Positions 1 to 20,152 of a DNA stretch of 53,315 nt are shown here, piece after piece; the first letter of the stretch is position 1; every line of letters starts with the position of its first letter. The translations under genes were made by a program, and so were the position numbers. The stretch spans positions 1 to 53,315 of the forward strand of contig JAFXIE010000109.1 in NCBI GenBank assembly GCA_017533425.1, written 5' to 3'. This DNA comes from Clostridia bacterium. Lineage in GTDB: Bacteria > Bacillota > Clostridia > Oscillospirales > QAMX01. Below the pieces are notes generated by a model. It did no database searches. It was not told the origin of the DNA and saw only the letters and a program-made list of their open reading frames with translations.

Positions 1-88
1 TATCATTAATCTCATTTGTCATTTTTTCGCAAACGATAGATATTTCAGTTTCCTTTATATTGGGGTCTTCAACAATTGTAACCTTCAA
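1..88 (-). CDS. LytTR-type transcriptional regulator, N-terminal fragment (gene runs off the left edge)
   Basis: TTG at 88-86 with GGGAG 8 nt upstream. It reads MKVTIVEDPNIKETEISIVCEKMTNEIND, which resembles N-termini of small stand-alone LytTR-domain regulators of Firmicutes as I recall them. Only 29 codons are visible. Confidence 0.35.
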   Translation of the reverse strand, partial: MKVTIVEDPNIKETEISIVCEKMTNEIND

Positions 89-331: not shown

Positions 332-506
332 AGTGATATTCTGTTCTAACGAACAGAGTGATATTTTCGCGTTGCGAAAGTGATATTGAAACCTGCGGTT
401 TCAGTGATATTATATTCGCCATAAAACTGGGCGAAGCCCAATATCACTCGGCTTTAGCCGAATATCACTGCGTAGCAATATAACTCGCCGAAAGGCGAAT
501 ATAACT
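332..506. repeat. mirror-symmetric array of eight 9-nt motifs with hairpin spacers
   Basis: AGTGATATT at 332, 357, 379, 403. Exact reverse complement AATATCACT at 440, 461. Variant AATATAACT at 477, 498. Each spacer is self-complementary. Confidence 0.9.
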
Positions 507-507
507 G

Positions 508-539
508 AAAAACCGACTTGTCAAAACAAGTCGGTTTTT
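508..539. terminator. bidirectional rho-independent terminator-like hairpin
   Basis: Perfect 13-bp stem aaaaaccgacttg / caagtcggttttt with loop tcaaaa. The A-run and T-run lie inside the arms. Confidence 0.7.
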
Positions 540-540
540 C

Positions 541-822
541 TGGAGCGGGAAACGGGATTCTGAACCCTGCCCGTTCGCTAACGCGAAGGGCATAAATTTG
601 CTTGCGCAAATTACAAGGCGATTTCTGCTTACCCAGTTGCCACTCCAAAGCAAAAAGCAGGCACAAGGCCTGCTGAAAGCAGAGGAAGGAAACGGGATTC
701 TGAACCCTGCCCGAACGCTTGCGCGTTGGGCATAAATTTGCTTGCGCAAATTACAAGGCGGCTTCTGCTTACCCGGTTGCCACTCCAAAGCAAAAAGCAG
801 GCACAAGGCCTGCTTTTTGCTT
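541..822 (-). repeat. two tandem ~140-bp units (541-680, 681-822) carrying copies of the tRNA-Gly 3' end
   Basis: Unit 1 starts tggagcgggaaacggg, identical to the first 16 nt (plus-strand text) of the tRNA-Gly gene at 823. Both units share the hairpin aaatttgc-ttgc-gcaaatt and a terminator-like hairpin. Confidence 0.85.
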
Positions 823-825
823 TGG
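785..825 (-). terminator. terminator hairpin directly after tRNA-Gly
   Basis: ccaaagcaaaaagcaggc-acaa-ggcctgctttttgctttgg, a long perfect inverted repeat overlapping the CCA end. Confidence 0.7.
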
Positions 826-897
826 AGCGGGAAACGGGGTTCGAACCCGCGACAGCCTGCTTGGGAAGCAGGTGCTCTACCACTGAACTACTCCCGC
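823..897 (-). tRNA. tRNA-Gly (anticodon CCC), CCA encoded
   Basis: Sense strand is gcgggagtagttcagtggtagagcacctgcttcccaagcagg...gggttcgaaccccgtttcccgctcca. Anticodon loop is ttCCCaa. The acceptor gcgggag pairs with ttcccgc. Confidence 0.95.
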
Positions 898-3551: not shown

Positions 3552-4229
3552 ATGGAAGAAAATTTGATTGCCCTGGCGGAGGCTCTCCGCCGGGAGGTGG
3601 AAGCCCTCTGCCGCGAGATCGGGCGGGATCCCCGAGAGGTGACGGTGCTTGCCGCTACCAAGGTGCAGTCGGCCCAGCGGGTTCGCGCCGTGCTCCCCTT
3701 TGTGGATGCTTGCGGCGAGAACCGCGTGCAGGAATTCTGCGAAAAGTATGATGCCGGGGCATATACCGGCAAGCCGGTGCATTTCATCGGCCATCTGCAG
3801 ACCAATAAGGTGAAATTTCTGGTGGGTCGGTGCGATCTCATCCAGTCGGTGGATTCCGTCCGGCTGGCAAAGGCCATTTCGGATCGCGCCGCGGCGCTGG
3901 GGATCGTGCAGGATATCCTCGCAGAGCTCAACATCGGCCGGGATGAAAATAAGACCGGCTGCCTGCCGGAGAATTTGCCGGAGCTCCTTGCCGCCATCCG
4001 GGAGCTTCCCGGTCTGCGCCTGCGGGGGCTGATGTGCGTCCCGCCCCGCGGCACGCCGGAGGAGACCGCCCCCTGGTTTGCAAAAACCCGCGAAATTTAC
4101 GAGACCTACGCCCCGGAATGGGGCTTTGACACCCTCTCCATGGGCATGAGCGGCGACTGGGCCGCAGCCATCCGGGAGGGAAGCACCCTCATCCGTGTCG
4201 GCACCGGCATTTTCGGGCCGCGCGGCTGA
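3552..4229 (+). CDS. YggS-family pyridoxal-phosphate homeostasis protein
   Basis: GENRVQE and HFIGHLQTNKVK motifs; 225 aa. Confidence 0.9.
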   Translation: MEENLIALAEALRREVEALCREIGRDPREVTVLAATKVQSAQRVRAVLPFVDACGENRVQEFCEKYDAGAYTGKPVHFIGHLQTNKVKFLVGRCDLIQSVDSVRLAKAISDRAAALGIVQDILAELNIGRDENKTGCLPENLPELLAAIRELPGLRLRGLMCVPPRGTPEETAPWFAKTREIYETYAPEWGFDTLSMGMSGDWAAAIREGSTLIRVGTGIFGPRG

Positions 4230-4259
4230 CAACGCTTAACCAAATATAAAGGAGACACC

Positions 4260-4745
4260 ATGAGAAACACTGCGAAAAACCTTGCCCGGGCTGCTGTGCT
4301 GGCGGCCATCATCTTCTGCCTGACCTATTTTATCAAGATTCCCTTTCCCGGCGGCTATGTCCATCCCGGCGATGCAGGCATTCTGCTGGCGGGACTGTGG
4401 CTGCCGCTGCCCTGGGCAGCAGGAGTTGCCGCCGTGGGCGCAGGCCTTGCGGATCTTGCCGGCGGCTATGCCGTTTATGCGCCCATCACCTTTCTGACCA
4501 AGGCGGCGATGGCGCTGGCGGCGGGCGCTGCAATGAGAAAAAAGCACACCCTCGCCACCTTCTGCCTTGCCGGTATTGCAGCGGGTATTGTCAACGTGGC
4601 GGGCTATTTGATTGGAGACTGGATCCTTTCCGGAAATGCCTTAACGGCGCTGGCCTATGCGCCGGCAAATGCCCTGCAGTCCCTGGCGAGCCTCGCCATC
4701 TTTGTTGTGGCGGCAAAGCTTTTGGATAAAAAAATCAGGTTTTAA
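4260..4745 (+). CDS. ECF-transporter S-component-like membrane protein
   Basis: 161 aa, about 5 hydrophobic helices, G/A-rich. The family call is by overall resemblance only. Confidence 0.6.
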   Translation: MRNTAKNLARAAVLAAIIFCLTYFIKIPFPGGYVHPGDAGILLAGLWLPLPWAAGVAAVGAGLADLAGGYAVYAPITFLTKAAMALAAGAAMRKKHTLATFCLAGIAAGIVNVAGYLIGDWILSGNALTALAYAPANALQSLASLAIFVVAAKLLDKKIRF

Positions 4746-19895: not shown

Positions 19896-19985
19896 TGGCG
19901 GAGAAGGAGGGATTTGAACCCTCGCGACGGTCACCCGCCCTACTCCCTTAGCAGGGGAGCCTCTTCACCACTTGAGTACTTCTCC
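19896..19985 (-). tRNA. tRNA-Ser (anticodon GCU), CCA encoded
   Basis: Sense strand is ggagaagtactcaagtggtgaagaggctcccctGCTaagggag, then a long variable arm, then gggttcaaatccctccttctccgcca. Confidence 0.95.
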
Positions 19986-20065
19986 ACGGTGAAAATATAT
20001 ACGCATATGTATCTCGCTTCCGGCACGGAAAAACCTGCTCCGGCGCCGGGGCGCTGGATCTCGTT

Positions 20066-20152
20066 TGGCGGAGAGAGAGGGATTCGAACCCCCGGCCCTT
20101 TCGGGTCACTGGTTTTCAAGACCAGCTCCATAAACCGCTCGGACATCTCTCC
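20066..20152 (-). tRNA. tRNA-Ser (anticodon UGA), CCA encoded
   Basis: Sense strand is ggagagatgtccgagcggtttatggagctggtctTGAaaaccag, then a variable arm, then gggttcgaatccctctctctccgcca. Confidence 0.95.

Follow-up and report, generated by a model that had tools for sequence, protein, structure and literature searches.

Positions 332 to 540 of the window (the whole stretch of DNA that was analyzed, 53,315 nucleotides) are one complete Gut-1 element (Rfam family RF01706), made of two inverted copies of its arm. In gut and rumen Clostridia, the canonical order is a tRNA, a GC hairpin termed P0, the element, a sigma-70 promoter, and a gene of the PF05635 family. This linkage suggests that the PF05635 protein may be the partner of the element.

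Four copies of AGTGATATT lie on the forward strand of the window, starting at 332, 357, 379, and 403; its exact reverse complement follows at 440 and 461, and a one-mismatch form, AATATAACT, at 477 and 498. All eight motif positions given in the initial annotation proved exact on rechecking. The six exact copies in the 53 kb all fall inside the array. When one mismatch was allowed, the window held 17 matches against 4.6 expected (the maximum of 100 shuffles was 10), and 8 of the 17 were packed into 175 nt. Both strands, when folded as the annotation had advised, did far better than shuffled sequence (z = −9.3 and −10.4). On the minus strand of the window, the element reads as P0, a short-spacing arm (S arm), a linker or center, and a long-spacing arm (L arm), with the following parts:

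507..540, minus strand: P0, a 15-bp GC hairpin (stem 507-521 / 526-540) flanked by an A-run and a T-run
440..506, minus strand: S arm, motifs GTTATAT, GTTATAT, GTGATAT, and GTGATAT (forward-strand positions 498-506, 477-485, 461-469, and 440-448), spacing 21/16/21 nt
486..497, unstranded: hp1, CGCC-GAAA-GGCG on the forward strand, invariant in a 23-copy alignment
470..476, unstranded: hp2, a minimal hairpin, GC-GTA-GC on the forward strand (TGCGTAGCA with its closing T-A pair)
449..460, unstranded: hp3, CGGC-TTTA-GCCG, 96.5% paired, with both-side changes at 4 of 5 pairs
428..440, unstranded: hp4, the central hairpin, TGGGC-GAA-GCCCA, 98% paired, with GC/CG swaps
410..423, forward strand: center segment TATATTCGCC, able to pair with motif 1 and the hp1 arm (494-504)
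332..411, forward strand: L arm, four strict AGTGATATT motifs (ATATCAC on the minus strand), spacing 25/22/24 nt
341-356, 366-378, and 388-402: L-arm hairpins
386..413, forward strand: candidate promoter TTGAAA-16-TG-n-TATTAT, inside the L arm and center (10 of 12 matches plus the TG)
541..573, minus strand: copy of the tRNA-Gly 3′ end (...CCCGCTCCA), abutting P0 and equivalent to the tRNA-CCA/GAAAAA-P0 junction of relatives
823..897, minus strand: tRNA-Gly(ccc), the co-directional upstream tRNA

Seven self-complementary spacers had been described; six are real and conserved in relatives, whereas the central one, placed at 415-435, is not conserved, and the conserved hairpin there is 428-440. 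The downstream hairpin, reported as 13 bp at 508-539, is present but has 15 bp and spans 507-540. On the forward strand its stem is preceded by an A-run and followed by TTTTTC (1 nt of which is shared with the last stem pair), that is, a GC-rich stem and then a T-run, as in an intrinsic (rho-independent) terminator. Because an A-run precedes the stem and a T-run follows it, P0 is terminator-like in both directions. We agree that the array is more than a simple terminator, that it contains no open reading frame, and that it is not a CRISPR array. The latter would need repeats of at least 23 nt, unique spacers of similar length, and cas genes; the repeats here are 7 to 9 nt and the spacers are palindromes of 7 to 16 nt.

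The Rfam search that the annotation had proposed was decisive. RF01706 matched positions 436 to 507 on the minus strand with 54.2 bits (gathering score, 50) and positions 331 to 415 on the forward strand with 46.8 bits (E = 2.6e-8), just under the gathering score. The model, of family type ‘sRNA’, consists of four GUGAAAU heptamers with three hairpins between them, and the window shows four GUGAWAU-type heptamers with three covarying hairpins. A feature class therefore exists for a layout that had been said to have none. The window had no match to other Rfam families, including ROOL, GOLLD, and guide RNAs; only Gut-1 and tRNA were found. Gut-1 was reported from human-gut environmental sequence only, with 43 examples and a rating of “RNA: Y,” and its source paper gives neither function nor gene context (Weinberg et al. 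2010, PMC2864571). In some rows of the published alignment, a tRNA end lies upstream and an inverted second half lies downstream (PMC2864571). Our literature search on the heptamers and Gut-1 found only Weinberg 2010.

When one genome per species was scanned for the motif pattern, at least 120 loci were recovered. Most of the matches listed are metagenome-assembled genomes (MAGs) of gut or rumen Clostridia (Oscillospiraceae, Acutalibacteraceae, and Christensenellaceae), and some are Akkermansia. The data came almost entirely from MAG contigs, on which genes were called crudely as longest open reading frames. A bipartite element of ~210 nt was present in ~30 of the at least 120 loci listed. It opens with P0, a GC hairpin ending in a T-run and then CA, directly before motif 1 (GTTATAT or ACGAAAT); such a hairpin stands in this position in nearly all relatives, and P0 is the conserved first module of the element. 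Four hairpins then alternate with the S-arm motifs at a spacing of 16 to 21 nt. After the S arm and linker comes a segment complementary to motif 1 and the first hairpin arm, and finally the L arm, with four ATWTCAC motifs at a spacing of 22 to 25 nt and three longer hairpins. The L-arm motifs are strict, whereas those of the S arm are degenerate (GTNNTAT). Some copies deviated from this plan: one arm alone, additional units in an arm, or, in a few, a second arm whose motif was noncomplementary. A BLAST search of the array against 72,556 plasmids gave no match, and against phages it gave one unverified fecal contig only. A pattern scan of viral contigs returned chiefly chance repeats and four true arrays.

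We examined the structure in an alignment of 23 copies of the GTGATAT class, in all of which the S arm was kept. Every pair of the three L-arm hairpins had changed on both sides, and these hairpins were 88 to 97% paired; two S-arm hairpins had compensatory changes at most pairs. The hairpins are thus selected structures, as their complementarity in the window had suggested. The rod of four nested 9-bp helices that had been proposed between the arms fared differently. Its outer two rungs were paired in 78% and 86% of alignment cells, their central positions were paired in only 3 and 10 of the 23 sequences, and the inner two rungs were merely invariant; all rung pairs together yielded a single both-sides change, in one sequence. 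The rungs thus lack consistent compensation, and in some relatives the second arm carries a noncomplementary motif. Motif 1 covaries with the center instead. Motif 1 plus its hairpin arm was 97% paired with the center, the variable position exchanging AU, UA, and CG in step, and the complementary run averaged 10.2 nt against 6.4 nt in a cross-locus control. In the window, hp1 and motif 1 can likewise form this alternative long-range pairing, since positions 410-420 and 494-504 are complementary over all 11 nt (100%).

The array of the window is an orphan located in a rearranged flank of tRNA-Gly, and it is unrelated to the adjacent LytTR gene. We call it an orphan because the PF05635 gene and promoter are absent beyond the L arm: tblastn found no PF05635 homologue in the 53-kb window, and the minus strand past position 332 showed no promoter. 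The tRNA adjacency noted in the initial annotation is real, and co-directional tRNAs recur in relatives, where the tRNA CCA end is followed directly by GAAAAA and P0. In the window, the gap between tRNA-Gly and P0 is filled by two 140-bp repeat units, each starting with a copy of the tRNA 3′ end. In the closest relative, identified via RNase Y, an array lies downstream of the same tRNA-Gly(ccc); it belongs to the GTGAAAT class and has a different neighboring gene. Among the 80 rny orthologue loci listed, this relative is the only one with an array downstream of that tRNA, and therefore no clean empty site was obtained.

The array had also been read as an operator for the neighboring regulator. 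The gene at 88..1 does encode a true LytTR protein (PF04397, 79 bits), with a membrane protein gene next to it, and the motif period of 21 to 25 bp resembles that of LytTR sites. The association with the array, however, is not conserved. The LytTR module is 96 to 98% identical in four metagenome contigs up to position ~250, where, before the array begins, the sequences diverge and the module is joined to unrelated DNA. A terminator-like hairpin at 216-247 stands between module and array, no LytTR gene was found beside the other array loci, and the closest relative has another gene in this place. Comparative data thus largely refute the operator reading, the chance of which we put close to nil.

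In an all-against-all comparison of array-flanking genes, a PF05635 protein of ~115 amino acids recurred in 7 of ~75 loci, including Akkermansia, and was the only notable recurrent neighbor family beyond generic ABC-transporter and XRE genes. PF05635 is the 23S rRNA intervening-sequence (IVS) or Avd-like four-helix-bundle family. It is related to Avd, the accessory protein of diversity-generating retroelements (DGRs); among solved structures, its closest relative is 2RLD, whose deposited entry has five chains. We know of no role for PF05635 proteins outside DGRs, and to our knowledge neither they nor Avd proteins are recognizers of specific sequences. Six array-linked proteins were used as queries to list the 80 closest relatives, a set that describes one subfamily because it was so chosen. 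With an L-arm motif definition broadened to take in the ATGAAAT/ATTTCAT variant, 77 of these 80 loci had chained L-arm motifs in the 330 nt before the start codon. RF01706 matched directly upstream in all 20 PF05635 loci tested, reaching the gathering score in 17, and most of the 20 had a tRNA just before the element. A co-directional tRNA within 420 nt was present in 47 of 71 PF05635 loci listed (13 tRNA identities).

Promoters completed this arrangement. After the last motif, 37 of the PF05635 loci listed carried a sigma-70-type promoter; in 22 the −35 element started at offset 0, directly behind that motif, and an extended TG was present in 28. Among the PF05635 loci listed, start codons clustered at 49 to 53, 33 to 34, and 15 to 16 nt past the last motif, with ~25 loci in the range of 15 to 38 nt. 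In the 33- to 34-nt class, a promoter would overlap the last repeat unit; 15 to 16 nt leaves a promoter no room, so that at least part of the L arm must be transcribed in short-distance loci. The motif variants and the N-terminal classes of the protein were matched, in counts that ignore shared ancestry: SKLR-type proteins accompanied ATTTCAC/ATATCAC motifs in 33 of 33 loci listed (none with ATTTCAT), and ENKL-type proteins accompanied ATTTCAT/ATATCAT in 34 of 39 (3 with ATTTCAC and 2 with ATTTAAT). One MAG holds both protein/motif pairs (loci L381 and L395). No conserved genes were found downstream of PF05635 in the loci listed. Large cassette arrays around the gene are rare, most loci having a single element (57 of 79 PF05635 loci listed, within ±10 kb).

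The element is polar: on its P0 side it follows a co-directional tRNA or the 3′ end of a gene, and its other side usually meets the 5′ end of a gene. Directly before P0, co-directional tRNAs of many identities were present in many loci (16 co-directional versus 0 opposed). In 28 full elements, the S side faced a gene 3′ end 18 times versus 3, and for the L side, facing the 5′ end of a gene with the same direction was the outcome in 16 cases versus 5. Genes of Firmicutes are mostly co-oriented with replication, and the polarity could therefore follow either transcription or replication.

We next consider whether the hairpins carry the signature of RNA or of DNA. Across 255 distinct spacers, there were 1,405 Watson-Crick, 14 G.T, and 20 A.C pairs; G.U thus makes up ~1% of pairs and, pooled over arrays, is no commoner than A.C. 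The closing pair was C-G in 212 of the 255. Loops were markedly one-sided; they read TTC, TGC, TAC, TTGC, and TTAC in the GTGAWAT sense, and on the ATWTCAC strand the counts were GAA 44, GCA 24, GTA 13, GCAA 12, and GTAA 12 (of 255 spacers). Short Watson-Crick stems with a C-G closing pair and a GNA or GNNA loop are the mark of mini-hairpin DNA (GCGNAGC / GCGNNAGC), and the spacers have these features. In the window, the forward-strand loops are GTA in hp2, GAAA in hp1, and GAA in hp4. As RNA, hp2 is not predicted to be stable (+0.4 kcal/mol in the nearest-neighbor model), and it fits the DNA consensus GCGNAGC (PMC13037366). DNA of this consensus melts at 70 to 76°C, compared with 39°C for r(GCGAAAGC), and mini-hairpin DNA is known at single-strand priming sites and N4 hairpin promoters (PMC13037366). 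Nearest-neighbor folding is unable to tell DNA and RNA apart in the case of GNA loops, whose special stability is absent from the parameter sets.

The few wobbles were unevenly placed. On the gene-sense strand of the 77 PF05635-linked elements listed, an independent set, the S arm had 9 A.C and 1 G.T, and the L arm had 13 G.T and 2 A.C. Pooled with the filtered array set, 39 wobbles favored the strand with GNA loops in their arm, against 16 that did not. The arms thus seem to work on opposite strands, both of which point outward from the center, and because their favored strands are opposite, no single transcript suits both. On these statistics, a DNA-level structure is favored over RNA for the element as a whole. 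An RNA leader role of the L arm may remain compatible with them.

Given the conserved linkage, the reading we prefer, at somewhat less than an even chance, is that the heptamers are bound by an oligomer of the cognate PF05635 protein, with the hairpins acting as DNA and the adjacent promoter being affected. The heptamers would be recognition sites that the hairpins present; the active form would be DNA, with hairpins extruded from the duplex or formed on a single strand, as suggested by the near absence of wobbles, by loops of the C-GNA-G type, and by functional strands that are opposite in the two arms. The array would then control or insulate the promoter starting right after the last motif, and orphan copies would be extra binding sites. 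A more specific version, in which Gut-1 elements would be no sRNAs but the DNA partner of a DGR-independent, Avd-like PF05635 oligomer, is tentative and on balance doubtful. In this version, extruded mini-hairpins on opposite strands would present two inverted heptamer arrays between a tRNA terminator and a promoter, protein subclasses would be matched to the motif variants, and the many orphan arrays would be additional sites. Binding by PF05635 is made less probable by the fact that the motif/protein match could reflect joint inheritance as a cassette, and by the fact that only ~10% of pattern-found arrays adjoin the gene. The DNA reading is weakened because at least part of the L arm must be transcribed in short-distance loci, because the gene-sense L arm has GNRA/GNA loops and more G.U than A.C (13 to 2), because Rfam's authors judged Gut-1 to be RNA, and because extruding palindromes of 9 to 19 bp from duplex DNA costs much energy.

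The structured noncoding RNA implied by Rfam, in which one or both arms would be transcribed and the heptamers, left single-stranded between the hairpins, would bind a protein (possibly PF05635) or another RNA as a sponge or 5′ leader, is an unlikely alternative. It draws on the Rfam matches and the original call, on the strong compensatory changes in the hairpins, on folding of both strands with z of about −10, and on the A-run and T-run of P0, which would terminate the opposite strand too. Some orphan copies have a terminator after them, an L arm 15 to 16 nt from a PF05635 start codon must sit in the mRNA, and in the phage-like contig L219, half arrays lie within an operon and run in its direction. 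For the window, we likewise think it unlikely that a forward-strand RNA of ~125 to 210 nt ends at the terminator 507-540. Promoter-like sites precede it at 300-327 and 386-413, and use of the latter would yield a transcript of ~125 nt with its end at P0. The −10 part of the 386..413 site is invariant in the GTGATAT class (TG-n-TATTNT in the center); no counterpart was found in the GTGAAAT class, and thus no promoter conserved across motif classes. The scarcity of G.U pairs and the predicted instability of hp2 as RNA also count against a transcript, as does the usual position of the element between a strong terminator and a promoter. Moreover, on the strand that Rfam reads as RNA (GUGAAAU), mismatches take the form of A.C and not of G.U, by the same 39 to 16.

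Distinctly less probable is a mobile or recombinogenic module that spreads, alone or together with promoter and cargo gene, to tRNA 3′ flanks and other terminators, resembling a MITE or REPIN or marking a cassette boundary, whose hairpin arrays would serve as single-stranded recombination or end-recognition sites. Copies do follow at least 13 different tRNAs, in every case starting right after ...CCA, and those on one contig are sometimes nearly identical (L053 and L107). In a few loci, tandem [P0-array-promoter-gene] units carry other cargo behind the same promoter and ribosome binding site (RBS), and non-PF05635 open reading frames stand behind the conserved promoter and RBS in L026 and L021. 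The window copy, with its tRNA-Gly 3′ fragment at 541-573, lies in a rearranged hot spot, and Watson-Crick-only stems with GNA loops resemble sites that act as single-stranded DNA. The initial annotation had raised an arm-site region or an origin of a mobile element. In an att-region check, tRNA 3′ fragments were present at 541-573 and 681-713 of the window; among the genes flanking arrays, no integrase, transposase, HUH, reverse transcriptase, Rep, or LytTR gene recurred. Target-site duplications were not identified, most PF05635 loci listed have their single element within ±10 kb, and PF05635 is a nonenzyme. Very improbable, finally, are paired single-strand initiation (priming) signals exposed when the center unwinds, as with ssiA/ssiB of RSF1010 or the G4 origin. 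The strands with GNA loops run 5′ to 3′ outward, as lagging-strand templates do in a bubble, and mini-hairpin DNA is typical of such sites; the elements, however, are chromosomal, occur in several copies, lack a Rep, primase, or iteron partner, and are absent from the 72,556 plasmids, with one unverified phage record.

The outcome for the window is modest, namely one orphan copy. More broadly, the near-constant pairing of tRNA, Gut-1, promoter, and PF05635 gene links two uncharacterized families, a connection strengthened by the match between motif and protein. Gut-1 has been in Rfam since 2010 without context past “human gut only,” and its model covers half of the element. If the more specific version, with PF05635 binding to extruded DNA hairpins, is true, it would amount to a new protein/hairpin-array system at tRNA flanks and would give a function to Gut-1 and to a large family of ‘23S rRNA IVS proteins.’ A sequence annotated as RNA that carries a DNA-hairpin signature also bears on how motifs from metagenome scans are interpreted.

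The element can be compared with several known systems. With Gut-1 as modeled in Rfam, the window shares the four GUGAWAU heptamers, the three variable covarying hairpins, and a gut-associated source; the model, however, has one arm only, whereas the element is bipartite and inverted, with P0, a center, and polarity, and its wobble and loop statistics argue against the annotated RNA orientation. Like REP/BIME elements and REPINs with their RAYT protein, it is an intergenic, multicopy set of inverted palindromes after gene 3′ ends or terminators, and, like REPINs with RAYT, it has one protein-linked copy and many orphans. In REPs, however, the palindrome is conserved and the flanks vary, whereas here the hairpins vary and the 7-nt linkers are conserved; RAYT is an HUH transposase, whereas the partner here is a four-helix bundle. 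We rejected a REP/BIME assignment because the hairpins differ inside one element and no HUH gene was found among the neighbors. The G4 origin, RSF1010 ssiA/ssiB, and N4 virion-RNAP promoters have the same C-GNA-G or C-GNNA-G loops on short Watson-Crick stems (PMC13037366), and ssiA and ssiB are also inverted on opposite strands. Those sites consist of one hairpin each, belong to the origins or promoters of plasmids or phages, and have dedicated enzymes, whereas the element has three to four hairpins per arm, is chromosomal, and repeats its heptamers.

Avd with the DGR RNA offers, as here, a small Avd-like four-helix bundle beside a structured nucleic acid that it may bind. The present loci differ in having no reverse transcriptase, template repeat, or variable repeat nearby and in placing the element upstream of the gene's promoter. 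The sponge sRNAs CsrB and RsmZ likewise repeat a short single-stranded motif among hairpins; they differ in that their motifs lie in loops, they have their own promoters, and G.U is common in them. Integron attC sites likewise conserve structure over sequence and work as a folded single strand at cassette boundaries. An attC site, however, is one long imperfect hairpin with R and L boxes and extrahelical bases and is used by IntI, whereas the element lies 5′ of a gene with its promoter, with no integrase.

The array, the window copy of Gut-1 (Rfam RF01706), lies within a 555-bp block that also holds two tandem units and is flanked on both sides by a short direct repeat. The features of this region, together with the more distant tRNA-Ser genes, are as follows.

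245-267 and 804-826: 23-nt direct repeat, with one mismatch
300-327 and 386-413, plus strand: two promoter-like sites, both directed at the terminator at 507-540
541-680 and 681-822, described on the plus strand: two 140-bp tandem units
19896-20152, minus strand: a pair of tRNA-Ser genes (gct and tga) next to each other

In each 140-bp unit, the first 33 nt reproduce the tRNA-Gly(ccc) 3′ end, and a terminator-like hairpin is also present. The 23-nt direct repeat combines the tRNA terminator's right half with TGGA. The 140-bp units could be what is left of small elements that integrated here, or the tRNA flank may have been duplicated locally. At the tRNA-Ser pair, no exact copies of the array motif were found.

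To the left of the array, positions 1 to 259 form a module consisting of a LytTR gene and a small membrane-protein gene, which is common to four metagenome contigs (L322 to L325) at 96 to 98% identity. The boundary of this module falls just past a hairpin at 216-247. A closely similar hairpin, GGCGCACCTGC-TTTATC-GCAGGTGCGCC, serves as P0, the terminator-like first module of the element, in the Gut-1 loci L027, L033, L091, and L017. Of the two promoter-like sites, the one at 386-413 reads TTGAAA-16-TG-n-TATTAT, with its −10 hexamer coinciding with the invariant center of the GTGATAT heptamer class; a counterpart of this site was not found in the GTGAAAT class.

Gut-1-type arrays were also detected in phage-like and verrucomicrobial contigs. 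The IMG/VR contig L219, which encodes portal and capsid proteins, carries two half arrays (about 3773-4397) in intergenic gaps of the late operon, codirectional with the genes. In a metagenome-assembled genome of Akkermansia, Verrucomicrobia (L005; 2190-3400 and 5745-6518), some arrays are paired with a second array of another motif, ACGAGATT, and one adjoins a gene of the Avd-like family PF05635.

Where an upstream tRNA is absent (L341, L394, and L383), a sequence of about 42 nt, TACTTTTACCTCAATTCTGCTCCGTTTGGTTACTCTTAGGCA, is conserved just upstream of P0. Units composed of P0, a Gut-1 element, a promoter, and a gene occur in tandem within single loci (L394, L341, L344, and L107), and the units differ from one another in both motif class and cargo, the latter comprising PF05635, NUDIX-like and leucine-rich-repeat-like proteins (both assigned by eye), and small unknown genes. 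In the published Gut-1 alignment (Weinberg Gut-1.sto; PMC2864571), contig BAAZ01000130.1 contains four Gut-1 matches with a 240-nt period, which indicates that Gut-1 elements can be tandemly repeated.
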